A stretch of 64,000 nucleotides of DNA. It comes from Narcine bancroftii (Eukaryota). The notes beneath the pieces were generated by a model, which was given only the letters and a program-made list of their open reading frames with translations, was not told the origin of the DNA and ran no database searches. The number at the start of each line of letters is the position of its first letter. Positions within the stretch are counted from its first letter, which is position 1. The position numbers and the translations under genes are program-made. The DNA is taken from contig NC_091476.1 of NCBI RefSeq assembly GCF_036971445.1, forward strand, positions 133,548,001-133,612,000. Reading direction: 5' to 3'. Below are positions 2,771 to 48,610 of this stretch, piece after piece.

Positions 2771-4103
2771 ATTAAAAAGAGTAGATTTCTGTGATTTTTT
2801 TGTTATATATAAGAAAGCAAATTCAATTATTTTTTGAAGTGAACTTTAATTCATTAGATAATAAATATTATTTGGGATGCATTAAAAACATATACAAGAG
2901 GTCAAATAGTAAGTTACTCAGCTAAAATTAAAAAGGAATATATAAAAGAGACAACAATTAAAACAGGAAATAGGTAAATTAGAAAAAAGATTTACAAAAT
3001 AAGCAAAAGCAATTAATAAAAAAACTTGAATATAACACCATTCAGACACATAACAAAAGCTAATTAACTAAACAGATACTATGAATTAGGAGAAAGAGCT
3101 CAAAGTTTTAGCATGCCAATTGAAAGCAAAACAGACATCTAGAGTGATTAATGCAATTAAAAAATCTTCGGGGACAATTGCATATAAACCACAAGAAATA
3201 AATTATGTATTTAAAGAATTTTATTCTGAATTATATAATTCGGAATCAGCACATGATGAAAATAAGATTGAAATAAGATTGACAAGTTTTTTATCACAAA
3301 TTACTTTACCTAGTCTGAATGATAGAGAGCAAATAGATTTGAATGTAGTATTTACGGCAAAGGAAATTAGTGAGGTAATAATCTCTGCAAAATAACAAAT
3401 CGCCAGGAGAAGATGGATTTCCTGTAGAATTTTATTAAAAAATTTAAAGATCTTTTAATACCTCCATTTATGAAGGTTTTAAATTATGCTATGAATGTAC
3501 ATTTTCTGCTAGAATTCTTCTTAATTGCAGTTATTACAGTAATTCAAAAAAAGATAGAGATCCAATGAAACCAGTATTATAGACCAATTTTCTTATTAAA
3601 TATTGATTATAAAATATTAACAAATAGATTGGCAAAGTATTTACCAAAATTAATACATATGGATCAAACTGGATTTGTTAAGGGTCAGAAATCTGAAGAT
3701 AATGCAGCGAGGCTTCTTAGTTTGACACATTTGGTTCAAAAAAAAGGGAGAGACCTGAGTGTGGCAGTGACTTTGGATGCTAAAAAGGCATTTGATAGAT
3801 TAGAATGGGATCTCTTTAAAATTTTAGAGAAATGCAGATTGGGTTCAATGTTCATAGATTGGGTTAAAATGTTGTATTTAAAGAAAACTATTGGAAAAAG
3901 TAGTGACAAATGGGCAGATTTCAATATCTTTTGAATTAACAAGATCAAGTAGACAAGGTTGCCCATTGTCACTGGCCTTGTTTGTTTTAGGAATAGAACT
4001 ATTAGCTGAATTAATAAGACAGGATTCTAAGGTGAAGCAAGAAGAATATAAAATATATTTATTTGCAGATGATGTTTTAATTTATTTAATATATGCTTTA
4101 AAT

Positions 4104-4475
4104 TAGTGGTTCTCAACCTGATTCTTTTCCACTCACATACCACTTTAAGTAATCCCTATGTCATCGGTGCTCTGTGATTATTAAGGGATTGCTTAAGGTG
4201 GTATGTGAGTGGGAAGGGAAAGTTAAGAATTACTGCTGTAGACCCAATTGTTACTGAAATATTTTGCTTGAGAAAAATTGTCATTGGGTAATTTCCTTTG
4301 GAGTTATGAAATCGTGCACTTAACAAGTCAATTAGGTATGATTGAAACAGTGGTTTTTAAACTTTTTCTTTCCATATACCACCTGAAGCAATCACTTAGT
4401 AATTTCAGAGCACCTATGGCATAGGGAATAATTAAACTGGTATGTGAGTGGAAAGAAAAAGGTTAAGAATTACTG
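4104..4475. mobile_element. hAT-type non-autonomous element (composite MITE)
   Basis: (C/T)AGTGGTTCTCAACC...GGTTAAGAATTACTG ends; 8-bp TSD CTTTAAAT at 4096-4103 and 4476-4483. Confidence 0.85.
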
Positions 4476-6836
4476 CTTTAAATTCTTTGCAAGAATTTAA
4501 CATTAGAATAAAAGAATATGAAGACAAATCGGGATATATAATTAATTTGGAGAAAAGTGAAATTATGTCTTTAGTTAATGGAGATTATCAGAAATGTAAG
4601 GAAGTAATTAAAACCTGATGGCCAGATCTTGAAATAAATTATATAGGTATTTGTATGCAATCAGATTTGACAAAGTTATTTAAATGATTTATCTTTATTG
4701 AAGAAAATTAGAGGATTTGGAAAAATGGAGTATGTTACCTATACTTTGGATAGAGTAAATTGTGTTAAGGTTAATGTTTTTTCACAAATACAATATTAAA
4801 TCGATTTCAATTCCTCAAAATTTTTTTTAAGCAATTAAATGTTTGTGTTAGAAAATTTTTATGTAAAGGCTAGGGTTTATTTGGAGAAATTAATGTGGAA
4901 ATAAGATTTAGGAGGTTAACATCTTCCCAATTTTATGAATGATTTTGAGAAATTTTTGGTCAAGATTTAGTATTACCAGTGGAGACAGAAGTAGAATTAT
5001 GTACTAGGGATGTAAAGAAATTTATTTCAGAGATGTATAAATTATTATAAAAGAAGGCTCATAAAGGAAGAGTTCATAAACCAAGACATAAATGGGAGGT
5101 AGATTTAAATAAGCAAGAAGAGGAATGTAGATGGATTCAGATATGTAGAGAGAGTATGAAAAGTACAATAAATGTGAGATATCAGTTAGTTCAATATAAC
5201 TTTATTCATCAGTTATATTTAACATCACAAAAGTTACATAAATCTGAATAAATATAAAGCATATTATATTTTAGATGTGGACAAGAAATTGGTATTTTTT
5301 TTGCATTTGACTTGGCAATGTTCCATAATTAAACCTTTTTGGCTTGAAATGGGTAATTTATTAGAACAAATAACTGAAGTAAGATTCCCACAAGATCCAT
5401 AGTTATTTTGACTGGGAGATATTAGAGGGATTAAACCTAAATTAAAGCTGAATATGTATCAATAAAATTTGTTCAAATTTCCTTGAAAATAGCTGGAAAA
5501 TGTATTGCTATAACTTGGAAGCTGAATACTGATTTGGGAATGGATAGATGGCATGCAGAAATTTGGAGTTGTATTCCACTTGGGAACATTACTTAGAATT
5601 TAAGAACTAAATATCATACATTTTGTGAAATATGGAGTCCATATTTACAAACTGTTGGTATTAAAATTTAAAATGAATCTTGAACATTCCCTTTATCGTA
5701 TAGGTCTCTATAAATATTTATATGTTTAAAAGTATTGGAAAGTAAAGTACTCCTGTTGTGGTTTTCTTGTCCCTCTTTTTCTTTTTTTTAGTTTGTAGGA
5801 GGTGGAGGGATTAATAAGAGGTCTTTCTTTTGTATTTTACTTTTTCTTTTTTATAAATACCATGTATATTTAGATTAAGTTTGAAATATTGTGATATGTT
5901 TGCTAAGTGGTCTTATTTTAAATAAAGCATTTAAAAAAAAAATCATGGTTGATCTGAATGTAACCCTCAACTCCACATTACCAGCCAGCAGTGACCTTTG
6001 ACATCCTTGCTTATCAGAAGTATCTGATTCCCTGAAAAATTTCAGAGTTGATTTCAGCTCTTTTGAGGAAGAATTTTGCTCACTAAGATACTCATAATTC
6101 TCTGAGGTAGTAAATTTCATCGTACTTTTGTTTTTTTTAAAATTTTTAAAACATTTTTCACACTATGAACCACACTGATCAAAATACACACAGACATTTC
6201 CCTCTTGAATATACACAGTGTCATTTTCTCCCCTTTTTCCCCTCCATCGTATTTTTGTTTGAAGAGGATGGAGCCTTATTTTCAAACAGTGACCCCAGGC
6301 GTAGATTTTCCCACTAGGCAGAAATGTCTTCCAGACATCTATCTCATAGGTAATGTCTGCAAGATCTCGTACATTTCAATCAATTGCTTAACTTTTCCAA
6401 ATGTCAACAGCTGCAACCTGCAAACATTCAAACTCCCAAGACTTAAATGCAGCAGAAATAAATCAGTCTCTTCAGTTGTTTGTTTGTGTAGCATTTCAGG
6501 CAAGGTGTGAAAAGATTTCAGATAGAGATTGTGATTTAATCAAGTGGTGTGCTTATGGAGGAGGTGTCATGGTGCACTTTAATCTTTGAGGTAGCTTATC
6601 AAAAATTTTACAAGATCTCGAATCCTAGGCTTAGACTTATTGTGATTTTTGTTTTGAGGATCAAAACTTTTAGAGCAAGTTCAAATTATCTATTGGAATG
6701 GTAATAGTTATTTTAAATCTTTTAATCTCTTTTCTTGCATTCATCACAGTGCTTTATTGATAACAATTCACGTTATGATTTTGATGCAATTTGCGATGCG
6801 TTTCAGAACAAAGAACTTTACATTTTTCTATTACAG

Positions 6837-11013: not shown

Positions 11014-11737
11014 TCTTCTTCTTCTTTGGCTTGGCTTCGCGGACGAAGCGGGTAAATGTCCACGTCAGCTGCAGGCTCATTTGTGGCTGACAAGTCCGAT
11101 GCGGGACAGGCATACACAGTTGCAGCGGTTTCAGGGGAAAATTGGTGGGTTGGGTGTTGGGTTTTTCCTCCTTTGTCTTTTATCAGTGAGGTGGGCTCTG
11201 CAGTCTTCTTCAAAGGAGGTTGCTGCCCGCCGAACTGTGAGGCGCCAAGATGCACGGTTTGAGGCAATATCAGCCCACTGCCGGTGGTCAATGTGGCAGG
11301 CACCAAGAGATTTCTTTAGGCAGTCCTTGTATCTCTTCTTTGGTGCACCTCTGTCACGGTGGCCAGTGGAGAGCTCGCCATATAACATGATCTTGGGAAG
11401 GCGATGGTCCTCCATTCTGGAGACGTGACCTACCCAGCGCAGTTGGATCTTCAGCAGCGTGGATTCGATGCTGTCGGCCTCTGTCATCTCGAGTACTTCA
11501 ATGTTAGGGATGAAAGCGCTCCAATGAATGTTGAGGATGGAGCGGAGACAACGCTGGTGGAAGTGTTCTAGGAGCCGTAGGTGATGCCAGTAGAGGACCC
11601 ATGTTTCGGAGCCAAACAGGAGTGTGGGTATGACACCGGCTCTGTATACGCTAATCTTTGTGAGGTTTTTCAGTTGGTTGTTTTTCCAGACTCTTGTTTA
11701 GTCTTCCAAAGGCGCTATTTGCCTTGGCGAGTCTGTT
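11014..11737 (-). mobile_element. RTE LINE 3' fragment (same family)
   Basis: Near-identical reverse complement of ~2037-2765; (GAA)n tail. Confidence 0.95.
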
Positions 11738-23081: not shown

Positions 23082-23530
23082 CTGCGCTGGATGGGTCACG
23101 TCTCCAGAATGGAGGACCATCGCCTTCCCAAGATCGTATTATATGGCGAGCTCTCCACTGGCCACCGTGACAGAGGTGCACCAAAGAAAAGGTACAAGGA
23201 CTGCCTAAAGAAATCTCTTGGTGCCTGCCACATTGACCACCGCCAGTGGGCTGATAACGCCTCAAACCGTGCATCTTGGCGCCTCACAGTTTGGCGGGCA
23301 GCAGCCTCCTTTGAAGAAGACCGCAGAGCCCACCTCACTGACAAAAGGCAAAGGAGGAAAAACCCAACACCCAACCCCAACCAACCAATTTTCCCTTGCA
23401 ACCGCTGCAATCGTGTCTGCCTGTCCCGCATCGGACTGGTCAGCCACAAACGAGCCTGCAGCTGACGTGGACTTTTTACCCCCTCCATAAATCTTCGTCC
23501 GCGAAGCCAAGCCAAAGAAAAGAAAAAAAG
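23082..23530 (+). mobile_element. RTE LINE 3' fragment (same family)
   Basis: Near identical to ~2336-2770; A-rich tail. Confidence 0.95.
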
Positions 23531-32858: not shown

Positions 32859-35800
32859 GTAAGTTTAGTTATTGACTTGTTTTATTTGTTTCATAAATGT
32901 TTAAATTCACAACAAAATGTATAAATGAAACAAATGTATGAATAGTAGGAAGAAAAATGGGGGAATATGGTCAAGATATCTGCACGTGTGCCTGATCTTC
33001 TCCCTACGTCATGGTTGTGCAGCTGTAATGTGTTGTTTTAACACTTGTACTCTGTGCCCCATCTGTTGAAAGCAAGTGTGCCATATGACTTCTTCACCAC
33101 CTTGTCCACACTTTCAGTGTACTTGTGCTTCCAGGTGTCTCTGTTCTGTTACATTCCCCGGGGACCTGCGTATGTCCTGCCTTGGTTTAACTTCCCAAAA
33201 TGTATCATTGCCTTTGAATCTAGCTGTGCTGCGAATGTTGTGCAAAGTGTATTGGAGCTGTTATTCTCATTGCAAGGCTGGAGTAATTGTTTCCTTGTGG
33301 TTTACATCCCCTCGCTGAATAATTCTGCTTTTGCAATCCAGCTTCGCCCTCTAATACAGTTAGAAATTCTGTACTTTGCTTGTTGAACTGGACTTGTGCA
33401 TGGCTGAACTTTGTAGAGAAATAGTGGAAAAATGCTGGCTTAATGCAATGATTCAAGATTATTTTCTTGCCATTTAGTAGAACAGAAAATGTAATATAGT
33501 TATGTAATCTTTTATCTGAAATTGTGAAAACCAAAAAAACAAACATTTTTTATTGCATGTGCAGTATATTTTCAGGTGTTAAGCTGAGTTTGAGCCAGTT
33601 TTAGTTTGAAATCTTACTGTATGTTTTAAAAATACAAGGATTGTCCTCCAGCAGAATTTTAGCCATCATGGTTAAAGGGTATTTGACAGAGGGAGTGGCT
33701 CGGGAAGAGAGCGGCAGCATGGCTTGGGCTGGTGAGTGAGGAGAGAAAGGCAGCGCGACTTGAGTGGGGAGAGAGTGGTCTATCTCACTTTGTTTACCAC
33801 CCCCATCCAATGTCGCTGTGGACCACCCCCACAGCAATTACTTAAAAGTACTGCTGTTTTAATATTATTTCGTTGTCCAAAAAATTCTGAAAATGTCTGG
33901 TCCCAAGGATTTCGGATAAAAGATTAAACATCTGTATTACACAAAATTTCCTTTAATCTACCAAAAGGCAGACAAAGATTTGCCAACAGGAAGAAATTGC
34001 CCAGCATCCCTTATAGTCCAAGGGGAAAAAAAAGAAAAAGAGAGTCCCTCCAGAGTTGCTGAGTGTCCATGGATTCACCTCCAGTTCTCCCACAGCCACA
34101 GAGCCTTCAGTCCAATCCATCGCCAACCTGAGCTACAGATCCAAATCATTGATATGAGCAGGAAGCTATCAGTATCCTTGGCACTCTTTCGCATCTCTCT
34201 GAAACCTGGTGCCCTTTCAACGAGTCTTAAACAAGCCTCTTGACTGCATTTGCCCACAGCCTGCATAGGTTCCTTGCCTCGAGTCACCAACAGCCTGTGT
34301 CTTCTTTAGCATTAGAGCCCCTTACTAATTTGCCACTGTGGTTGCTGTCCCGTAGGGTGATTTCCTTTGCTACTCCTCAAAGGAAGGGAGGTTGGGGTGT
34401 TTGCTATCTGGTGCCCAGTGATCAACTGCAACCAATTTTTGCATTTTTAGAAACGGCAAAGGGGGAAATTGCTCACTTGTAGTATTTTCCAAATTGTTCT
34501 CCTAACTCCAGCGAGTGAGCCTGATGTGCCATTGCCACAACTCATGGTGGGAACAGTGCACTGACTTTGTATCAGATTAGATCTGGCACTGAGGCCACTG
34601 TTTCCTTCATTTTGATGGAGGCAAACAGCTGCTCAGCTCCAACATAAATAGACATGCAAGGCAAGTTGATACTGGGAGGCAAGTGGTAAAACTGACAGCT
34701 TGACAATGAATTCTGTGGGAGGAGGACTCCTTTAACAAACCCCTCAGGGTCATTTTATTGGGACCAAAGGCTTGATCTTTGTAGACAGGACAAAAGGGGA
34801 ATTTTAGAGGATGGTTCTGAATATCTATGAACAATTTTGTGTTTCCTCGTGCCCAAGTTGTGTTCATGAGGAAGCAGAAAACGAAAAAACAAAAATTAAC
34901 CAATCTCGTCTGCTGCTAAATGGAATTGTGATTATCTGAAATGGTCAGGACTGGGCCCATTTTGGATACATTTTTTTGGAGAACTGGTTATTTTTTAAAA
35001 CAGCCCAGTAGCAACAGCAAATCACTTGTAACAGTGTTCAAACAACAACAAACAACAAGGGAAGGCTTTTTAAGCATTAAAATGAAGTTTAATTCTCACC
35101 AAAAAAAAAAATGCTGGACATCACCGATCACGAAAATTTCTCCACCGACGCCCCGCTCGTGCCAGGAGCCTGAGGGTCCCGCTCCTGCCTGAGAACTTGA
35201 GGTCCGCTGCTGCCACCACCGTGGGCCCAAGGTCCCCAGTCGGTTTGGCTCTGAAAACATTTTGGATAAATGAGGATTTTGGATAATTGGAGTCTACTGT
35301 ATTTGATCTGAAAAGTTCAATCACATTTTAATTTCAAACAAATGGGTGAAACGATAACTGTAGTAACTACTATCCAGAAAAAAAGCCACTCGGAGTCAAA
35401 GTGGGCTCTTTACTGTGACGTATATGATTAAATTTTTAACAAAGGCCAGATGCATTTTAAATTGTTTATTAGTGAACACAAAAGGACTCATAATGTGGTA
35501 ATGGTAACGATAATGTCCTTGCTAACATTTCTAACTATAACGACCAGTCTCTTCAGTAATGTAAAATGTATCGTCCAACAACCAACGTGTACCGTTGAAC
35601 AGAAAATATCGGAGCCTTACTCACCCACCGTCTATCCCACCATACCAGTCAACACGGGATAACTAACTGCCCCAAATGCACGCAACCCCTGCATGTGCGC
35701 CAACCCAAATCAATAGTGCATGTGCACTGGGAGATACCGAACGCGTGCAACCCTGGGATGCCGTTGATGTCTGCAGGCAAACCAACATTGATAAACAATA

Positions 35801-36028
35801 GGCCTTTGGCTCTTACACCAGTCCCTAAATATTATCTCAAATAATAATTACACAATTTTAAATAACAATCATATATAGTAAATTCTAATATTATGTTGAT
35901 CTTTTTTCTGCATTCTTCAGAGGTCAGAGGTTACTAGCACATAGCCTTGAAAAGAATGATCTTTACCACCACTCTGGACCAGTAAAGTCTGTGTAGTGGA
36001 CAAGGGATAAGGTCCAAAAACAACAAAA

Positions 36029-36910
36029 ATAAAGTCAGGCAGTTTTTAGTTTTCTTTCACTGTCACAGCATTATACAAGGAAATTTAAATTCCTCCGGAC
36101 AGATCTGTGGCTTTTTAACAATAACATGTTATTTTTAGCAGCTTTGTCAAGAAATTCTGTTTCAAGGACACTGTCTCTATTTGCATTCCAATGTGTATTG
36201 GGTTGTTCATCATTGTGCTTCTGCAGGTTGAATCAGCCAGAGACACACAGAATCCACTTGATCATCATTTACATCATAAATCACCTTTGATTTCACAGCA
36301 CTGTTCTGGCCTATTGCTTCAGCACCCCCAGAATATTAGATCCATTGCGAGACCAATCCCATAATGTGATTATTTTCAGTCACCCCGTAACATCCAATAT
36401 TTTTCTAAGCACCAGCAAAAGTCAAACCAAACTTGATTACATCCACTGGCTTTGAAAGAAAACTTAAAAAACAAGTCACAGATAGGCACAGCTCCCTTTA
36501 TGTCAGGGACAAAGGGGAATTCCACACCATGAACATTGGCACATATAGTAACAAAAAAGGCATTTGGATTCAAATTCTAATTGGTTGGATTAGGAATAGT
36601 TCTGTAAGCACCAATCTTGGCATGCACAATATTCACTTTTCCATATTTCTCTGCTTCTTTGGCTGCATTGGTAGACCAAGCTCTAGTAACCACATAATCT
36701 GCACTCCTCTTTTAATCCAGTAAGATTTAAAGTTACAACACTGAACTGACCAGTTCCACCTCCTGGAGAAAGATCACTTTGTAGTTTTTCAGAAATTTTT
36801 AGTTTTTGCAGGTAATTTTCTGCAATGTTGACAACTTTGAAGTTTGCTGATCCATGACTCATTTCCAGAACACTAATTCCAACCTCTCTGTAATCGAACA
36901 GCTCTTTCTG
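36029..36910 (-). pseudogene. PSAT1: Processed (intron-less) phosphoserine aminotransferase copy, frameshifted and internally deleted
   Basis: [96 protein letters not shown] are collinear with PSAT1. Confidence 0.93.
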
Positions 36911-37627
36911 TGCTTTTGAATTCTGGTAAACAACCACAACTTCTTTCAAAGGGTACTTAATAGGAAGGGTCTTTCTGTCTCGGATCACTCTTCCGAGCTC
37001 AATAATTGACTGCATTTGGGCGATTGCTGCCTCAATACGTTTATCAATAACAGATTCCCTTACTTGTGGGAGCATGAGCTAGTAAATGCTTTGATTATCC
37101 TTTGATCAACCAGGTGCCTTATGTTCTGGTACACGAGTTCAGTGATAAATGGTATAAAGGGTGCTATCAGCCAGCATGTCAAATAAAACAGCAAGCAATG
37201 TTTCCAAAACTCTTTCACAATTCTCAATATCATTTTCACCCTTTAACTTTCTATGATTTATTTGCACATACCAATTTGTGAGAATGTCCACAAATTTGAC
37301 TAGTCTGGGCACCATAGTGTAGAGTCTATATGTTTCAATTTCTACTTCGAAAAAATGGATTAGGGTTTGTGCAAATGAAAGCATCCATTTATCCATGATG
37401 TCACTGACCTCAGCTGTACTTCCATTGAAAATAAATTGAAAACCCTCTTCCTTCTGCAATCTCTGAATATTCTAAATAAGGAATCTGGATACATTGAATC
37501 AAGGTAGGAAGTCAACCTTGAGAACATCTCTCTCCTCCTTTAAACTGTAAATTTTCTGCTCTTGCAACAGCCTCAATACATCTGCTCCATAGGTGTTAAC
37601 AATGTGAATTGGATCTGGCTAATTCTT
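36911..37627 (-). pseudogene. IARS1: Processed (intron-less) fragment of cytosolic isoleucyl-tRNA synthetase (post-KMSK region and anticodon-binding domain)
   Basis: KN*PDP..YGAD.LRL, LQKEE, DKWMLSF, YRLYTMVPRLVKFVDILTNWYV, MQSIIELGRVIRDRKTLPIKYPLKE; stops and frameshifts present. Confidence 0.95.
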
Positions 37628-37877
37628 ACATTTTGTGTTAATAGTTGTTATGCAGCAACTGGTAACCAACAATCCCGTAACTGTTCTCGCATGCATCAGC
37701 AAAATAATGCAGTTGAGCAGATGTCACCATTGCAAAGTTTGTGGGTTTGAAACATCTGTCAACCATAAAGCTTTCCAGCTTCTGAAGATCCTGAATCCAA
37801 CACATTCATTCCTGTACTTATTTTTGTTTCTTAAATCGTTTGAACAACTCAGAAAACGATGTTTCAATTGTATTCAT

Positions 37878-39720
37878 TGTAGTGGCGGCTACACTGCTAA
37901 CTGAAGGATCGCACAACCAGACTGGTTGAGTTCAGTGAGCAAAACTGATTTATTGCAGGCTACCTGACTGGTCTTATACTCCCAGCCCGGACCTGGCTGA
38001 GAACCACGCCTGGGGGGCCCCGACGTCACCGGTGCAGAGGTCGAGAGGAAACCCCCCGACGGTGCCATTTTGGCCGGCTGCCCTGCCATGTACGTGACAG
38101 GTGGGGCTGGTTCACCTGCCTAATGGTGTACAGCCACACAGCCCCCCCCAGAACCAGCACCAATGCCCTTTTTTGCTGGGCGGCCTTGCTTCTTGGTTTG
38201 GGCCTCAACTACTGGCTCGGTGGGGTCGAGGTGGGCTGGCTTTAACCTGTCCACCGTAAACAGTTCCCTCTTACTACCGATGCCCAGTGTGAAAGTGGAT
38301 CCTGAGCGCTGGATGACTTTGTACGGCCCTTCGTATGGTCTTAGTAGAGGTGCTGTGGACGGGCACTGCCTGATAAAAACTTATTCTGTGGAGTACAGCT
38401 CACTGGGGACATAAGATGCCCATGTGCCATGTCTGGGTGTCAGTAGGGGTGTGAAGGAGTCCAACTGGGCCTGGAAGCAGGGAAGTAGACCGTGTGGTGA
38501 CTGCTGGGGGTTATGAGGTGCGTTGACGAATTCACCAGGTAGGGCTAGTGGTGCACTGTAGACCAGCTCGGCTGATGACGCCTGTAGGTAGTCTTTGGGT
38601 GTTGAGCAGATGCCCAGGGCACCCAAGGCACCTCATCCACCCAGTTGGAGCCGGTGAGGCAGGCCATAAGTGCCGACTTAAGGTGGCGGTGCAATCGCTC
38701 AACTAGCTCGATTCCCAGCCTGTTGTGAGTTGTGCCCAGAGCACAGAGTGCACTGGGCGCCCCGATCACTGGTGAGATGGCTCGGGACGCTGAACTGGGG
38801 AACCTAACCGTTCAAAAGCGCTCGGGAGCAGGAGTCTGTGGAGGCATCTGGCATCGGGATTGCCTCGTGCCAACGAGTGGTGCGGTCTACCACTGTGAAA
38901 AGATAACGGTTACCTCGGGAAACGGGTAAGGGTCCGACGATGTCCACATGTATGTGGCTGAACCGTTCCCGGACGTGTTCGAAATCTTGTATGGGCTCTC
39001 AGGTGTGCCTGTGTACCTTGGAAAGCTGGCAATGGGTGCAGGTTCTGGCCCAATCTGCTTCCGAATCCAGTGCCAGACGAAACATTCTGCCACCATACGA
39101 ACTGTGGACCTGATGGAAGGGTAGGAAAGGTCATGGATATGGTGGAAGACTTGCCTGTGCCACTGCTGGTGAACCACTGGACGCGGGTTGCCCATGGAGA
39201 CATCACAGGACGGTGCCCTCGCCATGAGGAGTCAGGAGGTCCTGGAACCGCAGGCCCGTGATGGCAGTCTCGAAGGCCCGCGTCTCCTCGTCGGACTTCT
39301 GGTCCCAGATGAGCTGGTCGAAGTCGAGGCCGGGAATCAGCGCGCAAAATGACCATACCCGCGAACTCCTGTAGCCCCTTGAGGTTGTTGTTGCCCCTTG
39401 AGGTTGTCTGGGCGAGGGAACTCCCTGACTGCAGCGACCTTCGTAGCGGCAAGTGTAGCTCCTTCGGCCGTGATGGTATGGCCCAGGAATTACATGGACT
39501 CTTTCTCGAACTGGGATTTGGCCGGATTGATCGTTAGGCCGAAGTCGGCCAGTCGGGAGAAGATGGTGCGCAGGTGAGACTTGTGTTGTGCCCGGTCGCT
39601 GCTGGCAACAAGGATGTCATCCAGGTAAATGAATACAAAATTCAAATCCCTGCCCACTGTGTCCATAAGGCGCTGGAAAGTCTGGGCGGCGTTCTTGAGC
39701 CTGAATGACATGCGTAGGAA
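37878..39720 (-). mobile_element. Gypsy (Ty3) LTR retrotransposon 3' half nested in the BEL element
   Basis: LTR 37878-38140 (TG..CA, minus-strand AATAAA), G-rich PPT at 38141-38150, integrase remnants, RT 'LKNAAQTFQRLMD..FIYLDDILVAS'. Confidence 0.92.
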
Positions 39721-40208
39721 CCCAAGTCCATAGTCATGTGCACTGGAAGATACTGATTGCGTGCAGCCTCCAGACCCTGCAACGCTGCCGATGCCTATAA
39801 TCAAACTGACAGTGGTAAACAACAAGCCTTTGGCTCTTACAATAATAATACGTAAAATTGATTAATGCTATTCTCAATGATTCCAACCATTTGCTCCTCA
39901 TCAAAGGCAAAACTGGATATCAATTATGGAATTGCCAATAGTCTATCATCTCTTATGCAGAAAAATATGCATTTCTCGTCGAAATATCTCATTACTATTT
40001 GAAATTGCTGTTTTTCAATATTTAATATAAAACTTCAATATTCATATACAAGTTTTGTCTTCAGGATATCTTTTCAGCGCAGCTATGTTTAACTATGATA
40101 CACATAGTGCACAAGCCAATGTCTGCAGAGTTGGGAAGAGAGTTTGATTTTAATTTGAAATGTTCTAGAAGGAGTTGTTAATGTTATGGTTTGTGATTCT
40201 TTAATTAG

Positions 40209-40384: not shown

Positions 40385-41049
40385 AAGTCTGGTGTTTAAA
40401 AAGACATTAAAAACAGCTGAAGCCATACATAGATCAAATTGGTTGGTTGAAAATTTAACTTGTGTTGAGAGAGGTGGTGTGAGTGCAGGGTAGACTTTGT
40501 TTTGTTGGTATTTGAGAAGTTGGATCCTTGTGACTCATGAGGGAGTTCAGTGTTTACTCAGTGTGGTACATAAAAAGTATAAATTTTATGATAGATCATA
40601 ATGAGTTTATTTTCTTACACATTGTGTAATGTATATATGCTCAAAATTCTTGAGCTGCAGCTGAACAGGAACTTGTAATGCAAAGCTAAAATAGTAAAAT
40701 AATTGAATTCAATTAACAAGTCTGGTGTTTAAAAAGACGTTAAAAACAGCTGAAGCCATACATAGATCAAATTGGTTGGTTGAAAATTTAACTTGTGCTG
40801 AGAGAGGTGGTGTGAGTGCAGGGTAGACTTTGTTTTGTTGGTATTTGAGAAGTTGGATCCTTGTGACTCATGAGGGAGTTCAGTGTTTACTCAGTGTGGT
40901 ACATAAAAAGTATAAATTTTATGATAGATCATAATGAGTTTATTTTCTTACACATTGTATAATGTATATATGCTCAAAATTCTTGAGCTGCAGCTGAACA
41001 GGAACTTGTAATGCAAAGCTAAAATAGTAAAATAATTAAATTCAATTAA
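40385..41049. repeat. 333-bp tandem duplication of intronic sequence
   Basis: 40385-40717 and 40718-41049 identical except for about 4 substitutions. Confidence 0.95.
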
Positions 41050-42840: not shown

Positions 42841-43171
42841 GAGTACAACCCTGATTCTCTGAAATCCTCAGTTATCCGAAATTTTTTCGGAGCCAAACTC
42901 TGTGAACCTCAGGCTCCTGGGCAGGAGTGGAGCCTCGGTGGGGAAGTCTTGGTGATTGGCAGTGGACAGCAATTTTTTTTTTGGAGAGAATTAAACATTA
43001 TTTTGGTGTTTAAAAAGCCTTATCTTGTTGGTTATTGTTGTTTAAACACTTACAAGTGATTTGCTGTTGCTACTGGGCTGTTTTTTTAGAAAATGACTGG
43101 TTCTCCAAAAAAAAAACGTTGATCTGAAACGGGCCTGGTCCCGACCATTTTTGATTATCGGGGTTGAACTG
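42841..43171. mobile_element. Tc1/mariner-pogo-like MITE copy
   Basis: TA-flanked (G)AGTACAACCCTGATT...GATTATCGGGGTTGAACTG termini. Confidence 0.7.
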
Positions 43172-46549: not shown

Positions 46550-48610
46550 TATAAAAAATGGAAAGTCTAAACCCACTACCAAGAAAGAAGCTGGCCGAAA
46601 AAAGAAAGACAGAATTTTTATCTCATTAGTCAACATTTCTACCTTCATAGCAAATCAAAGATTATAAAAGAGTCCCCACAGTGTCTGAAATTTTAAATTC
46701 AAATCAGAAATTGTGCATCTAATCTTTAAGTTAAACATGACATGACATACATAATTAGGCGGGGTAACACCCCTCCATCTGAGCAACACCACCCACCTAA
46801 CCATAAGAGAAATAAAAGTCCATGTAGCTCAGATGTCATTAACATTATGTCATTCTCTTCAACAATACCAAATAAAGCAGTTTAGGTATTTGGTTTGAAA
46901 TTAACTTCAAAATTGCAGAGAAAGTTTGAAATACTTTGTTCCAATATTTCTCAAGACTGGCATGTTCAGAACATATGAATTAATTATTTCCATTGATGCA
47001 TTTATCACAATGAGGTGATACATCCACTTCAAAATGAGATAGTTTGACTTCAGGCATGTGAGCCCAATGGACTACTTTAAATTGTAGGAAAGAGTGGTGG
47101 ACTCATAAAGAAGAGGTATTAACCAATTTGAAAATTATATTCTAAGTTTCTTCAGCTGTAGGTCCTGTTCCCAGGCTTTTTAAATTTTATCTGAGGGAGC
47201 CTCTCTTGTTCCCAACATAAATGTTAGATATTTAATCATTATAGAAAGGTTATAAATTTAAAAATTACCCCAATTAAAAACTTAAAAAGAATGGAGGTTT
47301 AGCTTTACCAAACTTAATGTTTTATTATTGGGCAGTCAGTATATGAAACCTTTGTTTTGGTTATAATAACTGTGAAGACTGTCCAATATGGATATCTCTG
47401 GAATCTAATTTGCAGACGATGCCACTTTAGTTGCCCATTCAGAGCCAGCTCTTCAGCGCTTGACGTCTTGCTTTGCGGAAACTGCCAAAGTGTTTGGTCT
47501 GGAAGTCAGCCTGAAGAAAACTGAGGTCCTCCATCAGCCAGCTCCCCACCATGACTACCAGCCCCCCCACATCTCCATCGGGCACACAAAACTCAAAACG
47601 GTCAACCAGTTTACCTATCTCGGCTGCACCATTTCTTCGGATGCAAGGATCGACAACGAGATAGACAACAGACTCGCCAAGGCAAATAGCACCTTTGGAA
47701 GACTACACAAAAGAGTCTGGAAAAACAACCAACTGAAAAACCTCACAAAGATAAGCGTATACAGAGCCGTTGTCATACCCACACTCCTGTTTGGCTCCGA
47801 ATCATGGGTCCTCTACCGGCATCATCTACAGCTCCTAGAATGCTTCCACCAGCGTTGTCTCCGCTCCATCCTCAATATCCATTGGAGCGCTTTCATCCCT
47901 AACGTCGAAGTACTGGAGATGGCAGAGGCCGACAGCATCGAGTCCACGCTGCTGAAGATCCAGCTGCGCTGGGTGGGTCACGTCTCCAGAATGGAGGACC
48001 ATCGCCTTCCCAAGATCGTGTTATATGGCGAGCTCTCCACTGGCCACCGTGACAGAGGTGCACCAAAGAAAAGGTACAAGGACTGCCTAAAGAAATCTCT
48101 TGGTGTCTGCCACATTGACCACCGCCAGTGGGCTGATATCGCCTCAAACCGTGCATCTTGGCGCCTCACAGTTTGGCGGGCAGCAACCTCCTTTGAAGAA
48201 GACCGCAGAGCCCACCTCACTGACAAAAGGCAAAGGAGGAAAAACCCAACACCCAACCCCAACCAACCAATTTTCCCCTGCAGCCGCTGCAACCGTGTCT
48301 GCCTGTCCCGCTTCGGACTTGTCAGTCACAAACGAGCCTGCAGCTGACGTGGACTTTTACCCCCTCCATAAATCTTCGTCCGCAAAGCCAAGCCAAAGAA
48401 GAAAGAATTCTGTTACAAAATTTTCTCTAATTTCTCTTCTTGGATCCTCTTCCTAGATCTCTAAATAAATTAACTAATAATCCTGTGGTTAAACATACTT
48501 TGAGTATATGGATACAATTAGAAAACATTTTGGTTTAATGAGATTGTACTCTCTCTAGTCATATTTTTCTAATTATTTCTTTAAGCCATCTACTACTCAT
48601 TTTTTTTCGT
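46550..48610. mobile_element. Old L1-clade LINE in two orientations (3' part on -, ~46550-47250; upstream part on +, ~47260-48610), split by an RTE
   Basis: Minus: QFKVVHWAHM, LEKYWNKVFQ; plus: KKNGGLALPN..YYWA, WISLESN|SVTKFSL, NPVVKHTL. Confidence 0.7.
47409..48407 (+). mobile_element. RTE LINE 5'-truncated copy (same family), open from FADD region to the end
   Basis: Near identical to ~1781-2770; ORF 47460-48347. Confidence 0.95.

Follow-up and report, generated by a model that had tools for sequence, protein, structure and literature searches.

The window analysed here is a 64,000-nt stretch of the Narcine bancroftii genome (contig NC_091476.1, positions 133,548,001 to 133,612,000; G000:C17:133548001-133612000). 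From 39841 to 35359, its minus strand carries one decayed, 5′-damaged copy of a multi-copy, nonautonomous BEL/Pao family of retrotransposons with long terminal repeats (LTRs), in which pieces of host cDNA stand in place of element coding sequence. Along this strand the order is ~120 nt of a 5′ LTR, a Gypsy fragment, 64 nt of TACC, a scrap of RNase H, IARS1, PSAT1, a 3′ untranslated region (UTR), a polypurine tract (PPT), and an LTR. In window coordinates (other copies are designated by L numbers), the features are as follows:

35354..35358, no strand: left copy of the target-site duplication (TSD), ATAAC, a 4/5 match to 39842–39846
35359..35817, minus: complete 3′ LTR, 459 nt, TG..CA, with AATAAA at 35465–35470
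35818..35828, minus: PPT; a similar tract stands ahead of the 3′ LTR in other copies
35829..36028, minus: native BEL 3′ UTR, beginning right after the parent pol stop; the same sequence lies 3′ of integrase in the pol-bearing copies L099 and L115
36029..36915, minus: PSAT1 cDNA piece, nt 74–1085 of the host coding sequence (CDS; exons 2–9), without stop or UTR; host gene at G000:C1 ~75.9 Mb
36903..37641, minus: IARS1 cDNA piece, ~residues 597–862 (KMSK motif, anticodon-binding domain), a join of 8 host exons; gene of origin at G000:C11 ~41.9 Mb
37641..37813, minus: BEL/Pao RNase H remnant (PF05380, E 1.6e-5, above cut-off), 81% to the pol-bearing copy L103
37814..37877, minus: last 64 nt of TACC cDNA, matching the host exon at 92%; gene of origin at G000:C8 ~32.9 Mb
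37878..39719, minus: nested Gypsy-type fragment with partial reverse transcriptase (RT; RVT_1, E 5e-14), integrase (rve, E 9e-6), and its own 3′ LTR (~37878–38140)
39720..39841, minus: 5′ LTR, of which the first ~120 nt are left; a deletion has taken the remainder together with gag, protease, and the greater part of TACC
39842..39846, no strand: right copy of the TSD, ATAAT, a 4/5 match to ATAAC at 35354–35358

An earlier note on this DNA had recognized direct repeats ending at 35817 and 39841, which are indeed present and 80% identical over 115 aligned nt, a PPT on the minus strand beside the left one (35818–35828), and ATAAC/ATAAT flanks as a 5-bp TSD with one mismatch. Its reading of the repeats as two LTRs is correct for the left one, a complete LTR from 35359, whereas the right one is only the first ~120 nt of a 5′ LTR. 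The left LTR has 555 first-look candidates genome-wide. As for the AGTAAA signal proposed by the note, it occurs in 10/15 LTR copies, and the canonical AATAAA at 35465–35470, found in 15/17, is a better poly-A signal. The stretch 37628–37877, taken for BEL RNase H, does contain a Pao-type scrap abutting IARS1 in the same orientation, but its part from 37814 to 37877 is TACC. Likewise, the span treated as one element is a BEL copy with the exception of 37878–39719, a later nested Gypsy fragment which is not part of the BEL family; this Gypsy-type repeat is also found in copy L073, at another position. Both the Gypsy insertion and the 5′ deletion would postdate the integration of the window copy. 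The window PSAT1 also has a 108-nt internal deletion at 36367, absent from other copies. The 200 nt before the PPT were considered as further cargo and rejected, being the native 3′ UTR.

The cargo consists of intronless partial mRNA which replaces internal open reading frame (ORF) sequence of the element. Among named proteins, those closest to the IARS1 and PSAT1 pieces come from Narcine bancroftii and match the exons of this genome without mismatch, and thus the cargo derives from the host's own genes. Each cargo joins 6–10 host exons. In detail, IARS1 unites 8 exons that span 23 kb of C11 in the host, PSAT1 joins exons 2–9 (8 exons, 17 kb of C1) and ends 28 nt before the CDS end, SMC5, found in other copies, joins up to 10, and TACC, which in complete copies measures 538 nt, joins 6 exons of the C8 gene and not of its C5 or C22 paralogues. 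The latter is presumably TACC3, on account of a motif which the C8 gene has and its C5 and C22 counterparts do not; the TACC paralogues could not be told apart by searches of PDB and Atlas, and a protein search with a TACC-containing piece gave no match. When the cargo was checked for the hallmarks of long interspersed nuclear elements (LINEs), that is, poly-A, an intact 3′ end, and its own TSD, none was present, and a scan of the element found no run of 12 A or T. The statement of the note that the cDNA is devoid of poly-A or a LINE-style TSD is therefore correct, and the ORF was replaced at microhomologies. It had further proposed that two host mRNAs replaced the RNase H–integrase region; the replacement by host mRNA stands, but three genes are involved and RT was replaced as well.

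Three side observations concern the source genes and their copies. In the host TACC gene (L064, G000:C8 ~32.867 Mb), an exon ends in a ~33-nt tandem repeat with GC and GT donors, of which the captured form has one unit. In copy L053 (positions 4085–5256), a 42-nt piece of TACC cargo has expanded to ~20 tandem copies, forming an open frame of 387 codons. An isolated copy of PSAT1 exon 1 (79 nt) is located far from the PSAT1 gene (L062, G000:C8:79270838), and the next 80 kb beyond it contain no further exons.

The mobilized nonautonomous family that the note had suspected does exist in the 3.3-Gb genome searched. A 30-nt pattern spanning the IARS1|PSAT1 junction (≤3 mismatches) was found at 27 loci on 10 contigs, and at none with the reversed pattern as control. 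The IARS1 piece is present at at least 40 loci (40 scored of 120 candidates) and the PSAT1-plus-tail piece at at least 40 (40 scored of 448). The union of the IARS1, PSAT1-tail, and junction lists with two further lists plus L118 comprises 81 distinct loci on 13 contigs, to which a subfamily with MIPOL1 and Elongin A adds at least 40 more (40 scored of 672), that is, ~120 cargo-bearing loci in all among the matches listed. Cargo was confirmed in 65 of the 71 stretches examined in sequence. Full-length copies are uninterrupted over ~6.2–6.8 kb, in the order LTR, gag, zinc knuckles, protease, TACC, RNase H scrap, IARS1, PSAT1, UTR, PPT, and LTR. Of 21 loci examined, 11 had both ends placed; at 9 of these the 5-bp TSD matches at 4/5 or better, each being different, and 2 mismatch.

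The LTR pairs are 77–83% identical (nine pairs) and the copies differ by ~8% from the commonest letter per column, which points to an old burst. Stops and frame breaks were found in 32/32 copies checked of subfamily A. Pol-bearing copies of the same LTR family, with the order protease (PR), RT, Pao RNase H (RH), and integrase (IN), are common and are likely the helpers. Three near-identical cargo copies (L055–L057, G000:C9 172.9–173.7 Mb) are probably a segmental duplication; L055 and L057, duplicates of L056, were excluded from variant and junction counts, and L053, with its tandem expansion, from variant counts. Among the contigs of four of the 12 sequencing runs listed, no listed piece showed the empty site or bridged a cargo junction (31 nt each side) in another organism. 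In organism C, many diverged contigs cover the LTR and the cargo, which is a hint only.

The placement of the element as a nonautonomous derivative of the BEL/Pao family is indicated by the homology of its RNase H, by the order of domains, and by its PPT and TSD. The TSD of BEL/Pao elements is 5 bp, and the marker of their Gag is DUF1759. The gag pieces of the present family had no direct hit in Pfam, and its gag is 42% identical (E 8e-27) to the DUF1759-positive gag of the related element L107. Members of BEL/Pao (Belpaoviridae) have LTRs of 0.2–1.2 kb, genomes of 4–10 kb in the order PR-RT-RH-IN with a Pao-type RNase H region (PF05380), a PPT of ~10 nt, and an 18-nt primer site for tRNA-Arg or tRNA-Gly (PMC8742986). 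The LTR of 459 nt (TG..CA) and the ~6.2–6.8-kb copies fall within these ranges, a PPT precedes the 3′ LTR, the Pao RNase H is clear in a same-LTR copy (L103, PF05380 E 2e-16), and the order PR-RT-RH-IN is found in the pol-bearing copies L103, L115, L180, L183, L186, L197, and L199; in contrast, the cargo copies have no RT or integrase. With pol-bearing copies of the same family carrying PR-RT-Pao RNase H-IN, the identity of the repeats as BEL LTRs, set beforehand as a test, holds. BEL/Pao elements are abundant genome-wide (2310 first-look PF05380 candidates, of which 150 were scored).

The source genes of the cargo are at least six, namely TACC, IARS1, PSAT1, SMC5, Elongin A, and MIPOL1, and several subfamilies combine them. 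The window subfamily has five junctions, on microhomologies of ~7, 4, 8, 12/13, and 6 nt (4–13 nt), identical across copies; the 12/13-nt one is the overlap of IARS1 and PSAT1 in the window. Other subfamilies have TACC-RH-long IARS1-integrase end, RT-RH-IARS1 without TACC (L143, L205, and L147/L202), RT-SMC5, RT-SMC5-PSAT1 from its ATG, TACC-RH-short IARS1-SMC5-PSAT1, or MIPOL1-Elongin A. Four host genes are found in each of L136 and L138. The SMC5 hinge is carried by L133–L139, L051, and L161 (PDB 9lwi, E 2e-49); its switch point lies directly before the catalytic Y-A-D-D motif of RT, and the RT|SMC5 junction shows weak microsimilarity. Cargo length varies by subfamily, for instance ~135, 795, or 1540 nt for IARS1 and ~220–1300 nt for SMC5. 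In L209–L220 (e.g., G000:C1:435998761-436000194), the cargo is MIPOL1 and Elongin A (PDB 8oev, E 2e-30), and the integrase tail of the family ends 11 of the 12 copies examined. The order of the MIPOL1 cargo is permuted in 12/12 copies, with residues ~340–457 preceding ~190–275, possibly as expected of a back-spliced circular RNA template. Segments in L195/L198 and L185, first considered as cargo, turned out to be common repeats.

The modules are near-identical between subfamilies (1 difference in 562 compared codons), and the PSAT1|3′ UTR junction is common to the subfamilies which reach it, with and without IARS1. We infer from this a single capture of each gene, followed within a short time by exchange among element RNAs. 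IARS1 would first have replaced the end of RNase H and the integrase, as in the RT-RH-IARS1 copies, and TACC would then have replaced RT. In a separate line, SMC5 may have replaced RT from the catalytic motif onward and PSAT1 the end of SMC5. The window subfamily would have arisen by a switch between TACC-RH-IARS1 and SMC5-PSAT1 element RNAs.

In the TACC/IARS1/PSAT1/SMC5 subfamilies, 8 of 8 recurrent coding junctions keep the frame; one of them reaches the ATG of PSAT1 by way of its 5′ UTR, and another leads back to the native pol stop. By copies, the frame is kept in 26/34, 33/46, 32/37, 25/31, 8/12, 2/4, 2/2, and 4/5, and the junction with 2/4 gives 4/4 when read at the junction itself. From the 6–7-mers shared between parent sequences, the in-frame share expected by chance is 0.37–0.48 for each junction, which gives P 0.0007–0.003 for 8/8. 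The respective value for single-copy deletions is 95/261 (36%; Fisher p 0.0004). With a single exception, the 60-nt cargo windows have a modal net indel divisible by 3, and a scan of TACC, IARS1 1–884, and PSAT1 for frameshifts and non-CpG-type stops found none that most copies share. One TACC codon, CGA in the host, is a stop in 16/35 copies, and two IARS1 codons, covered by 6–8 copies, are stops in 3. The gag–protease region runs in a single phase over its last ~2 kb; apparent shared deletions in it were rejected as alignment artefacts. Purifying selection on the cargo was not detected in a test of low power (nonsynonymous/synonymous ratio 3.58 for variants in at least three copies vs. 3.75 for singletons, p 0.73; p 1.0 at ≥5). 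In gag–protease it is weak (2.4 vs. 3.8, p 0.012, in a set that includes pol-bearing copies).

At these loci, spliced host RNA was captured into pol, RT and integrase were lost, the resulting copies were dispersed by integration, and their junctions are biased in frame. The probable explanation is that pieces of spliced TACC, IARS1, and PSAT1 mRNA replaced RT, RNase H, and integrase by template switching, and that the chimeras spread in trans by virtue of an unbroken frame, the cargo being a stuffer. Host mRNA would be captured inside virus-like particles by template switching guided by microhomology, and the chimeras would be mobilized by the RT and integrase of a helper. Spread would favour variants with one ORF from gag to near the 3′ LTR, in which the cargo preserves length and frame and does not serve as a working enzyme. 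With an early stop, 2–3 kb of the genomic RNA would be left untranslated and the molecule would become a target of nonsense-mediated decay, which an open frame would avoid.

Several observations weigh against this explanation. Nonsense-mediated decay is the likeliest reason for a frame filter by analogy only, a study of Rous sarcoma virus reporting that its unspliced RNA is subject to it (PMC2925335). No intact helper was seen among the pol-bearing copies examined, and no canonical (TGG-type) tRNA primer site was seen, reading by eye, after the 5′ LTR, where both cargo and pol-bearing copies are T-rich. Frame continuity is ambiguous in the first third of gag, and two single-copy junctions (L051 and L119) look out of frame. 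The recurrent Elongin A|integrase-end junction, the only one at which the frame of the MIPOL1-Elongin A subfamily was read, does not keep the frame of the integrase; it lies ~45 nt ahead of the native stop, so that the frame nonetheless closes not far from the 3′ end. When it is counted, 8/9 junctions are in frame (P ~0.004–0.015, hand arithmetic). Finally, the selection test has low power because the subfamilies are star-like, with 1 of the 562 compared codons differing between them.

The same capture and spread could also have been driven by a fused cargo protein useful to the element, as in retroviral oncogenes. The SMC5 hinge might act as a decoy against SMC5/6 silencing, the TACC coiled coil might target the spindle, and the IleRS domain might bind tRNA. 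The in-frame fusions, the coverage of whole domains by several cargo pieces, and the reported silencing of unintegrated retroviral DNA by SMC5/6 (PMC8118623, PMC9712108) agree with such a role. It is nevertheless improbable, since purifying selection on the cargo was not detected, its length varies freely between subfamilies, and the same slot is filled by six unrelated genes. Furthermore, IARS1 is without its N-terminal catalytic half, and no canonical tRNA primer site was seen in parent or cargo copies; a role of IleRS as recruiter of the primer tRNA was rejected for this reason.

Somewhat less improbable, but still unlikely, is that template switching captured the genes, that codon-periodic microhomology and small numbers gave rise to the frame bias as a side effect, and that any LTR-flanked chimera could amplify. 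Microhomology does lift the in-frame chance to 0.37–0.48, only 8–9 independent junctions were scored, and one recurrent terminal junction is out of frame. On the other hand, 8/8 (or 8/9) against that null has P ~0.001–0.015, and single-copy deletions remain at 36% in frame. Both of these alternatives overlap with the favoured explanation in the capture of spliced host RNA into the element, a step which is practically certain. The insertion of LINE-primed processed pseudogenes into pre-existing BEL copies, or the spread of one locus by segmental duplication, has a negligible probability and is already refuted at the loci examined. The three C9 copies were probably duplicated as DNA, but elsewhere the flanks and TSDs differ per locus and the copies lie on 13 contigs, while the cargo is without 3′ ends or poly-A, pol is replaced rather than interrupted, and the junctions lie on microhomologies.

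Acutely transforming retroviruses have a defective genome with host cDNA fused in frame to gag and depend on a helper, and maize Bs1 belongs to a different superfamily and kingdom from this BEL family. The present chimeras resemble the former in all three respects, but an env or infection step was not seen, amplification is in the germ line, and selection on the cargo protein was not detected. The analogy with retroviral oncogene capture drawn by the note applies to the mechanism and not to the function. Bs1 is described as a nonautonomous LTR element with three unlinked host genes in a hybrid ORF, which is transcribed, translated, and possibly functional and was shaped by later mutations (PMC13317346). 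The nonautonomous LTR structure, the pieces of three unlinked host genes, and the hybrid ORF are shared, whereas here 32/32 checked copies are broken, it is the junctions that fix the frame, and the cargo shows no sign of selection.

The closest known system is the LTR-mediated retrocopies of Tan et al. (2016), in which partial spliced mRNA replaces internal ORFs at microsimilarities (median 6 bp), without poly-A (PMC5131818). The same study also reports elements with more than one gene, among them a Pao BATUMI that carries two, as well as a case in BEL18_AG, retransposition as nonautonomous elements, mostly single- or few-copy loci, and a longest ORF in frame with the parental protein in 14/17 fly cases (PMC5131818). 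The capture mechanism, multi-gene chimeras, involvement of Pao/BEL, and retransposition are thus already known from that source. Alike are the intronless partial mRNA in place of an ORF, the microsimilarity at switch points, and the further retroposition. Compared with those cases, the present family differs in its ~120 loci, at least six genes, module-exchanging subfamilies, host (a cartilaginous fish), and junctions in frame with the element ORF. Junction frame was not tested against copy number in the main-text parts, and the supplementary ORF-frame tables may bear on the frame claim (PMC5131818). In the literature searched, with subscription journals and Repbase reports outside its scope, neither this family nor any vertebrate BEL swarm bearing many host genes was found described; the scale, modular recombination, and frame bias in a vertebrate BEL were likewise not found there. 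The visible intermediates, the six source genes, and the possible circular-RNA template are also notable.

Other repeats are present in the window. Inverted copies of a short interspersed repeat are located on each side of the element (34991–35287 and 42854–42996), and one contig of organism C passes over the left of these. Positions 40385–41041 hold a direct duplication of 333 nt with 99% identity. A young interspersed repeat (92–98% identical) has four copies (2115–2771, 11016–11663, 23082–23529, and 47743–48407) and also breaks up several BEL copies.

LTR gene capture is known mostly from single loci, and here it is seen in high-copy subfamilies with traceable intermediates, so that the succession of captures and recombinations is open to direct reading. 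Counts of junction frames, set against copy number, also offer a test of what enables an element with captured genes to amplify. For annotation, ~120 IARS1-, PSAT1-, TACC-, SMC5-, ELOA-, and MIPOL1-like pseudogenes of this genome are transposon cargo, and the cargo list is a record of host RNAs co-packaged in germ-line particles. More tentatively, and at slightly less than an even chance, a vertebrate BEL lineage may have become a swarm of recombining elements that carry host genes, with at least six germ-line mRNAs (MIPOL1 possibly from a circular RNA) exchanged among element RNAs and filtered by a gag frame open to the 3′ end. If true, such a swarm would be a many-copy record of how RNA surveillance selects among captured genes and of what RNA ancient particles contained.

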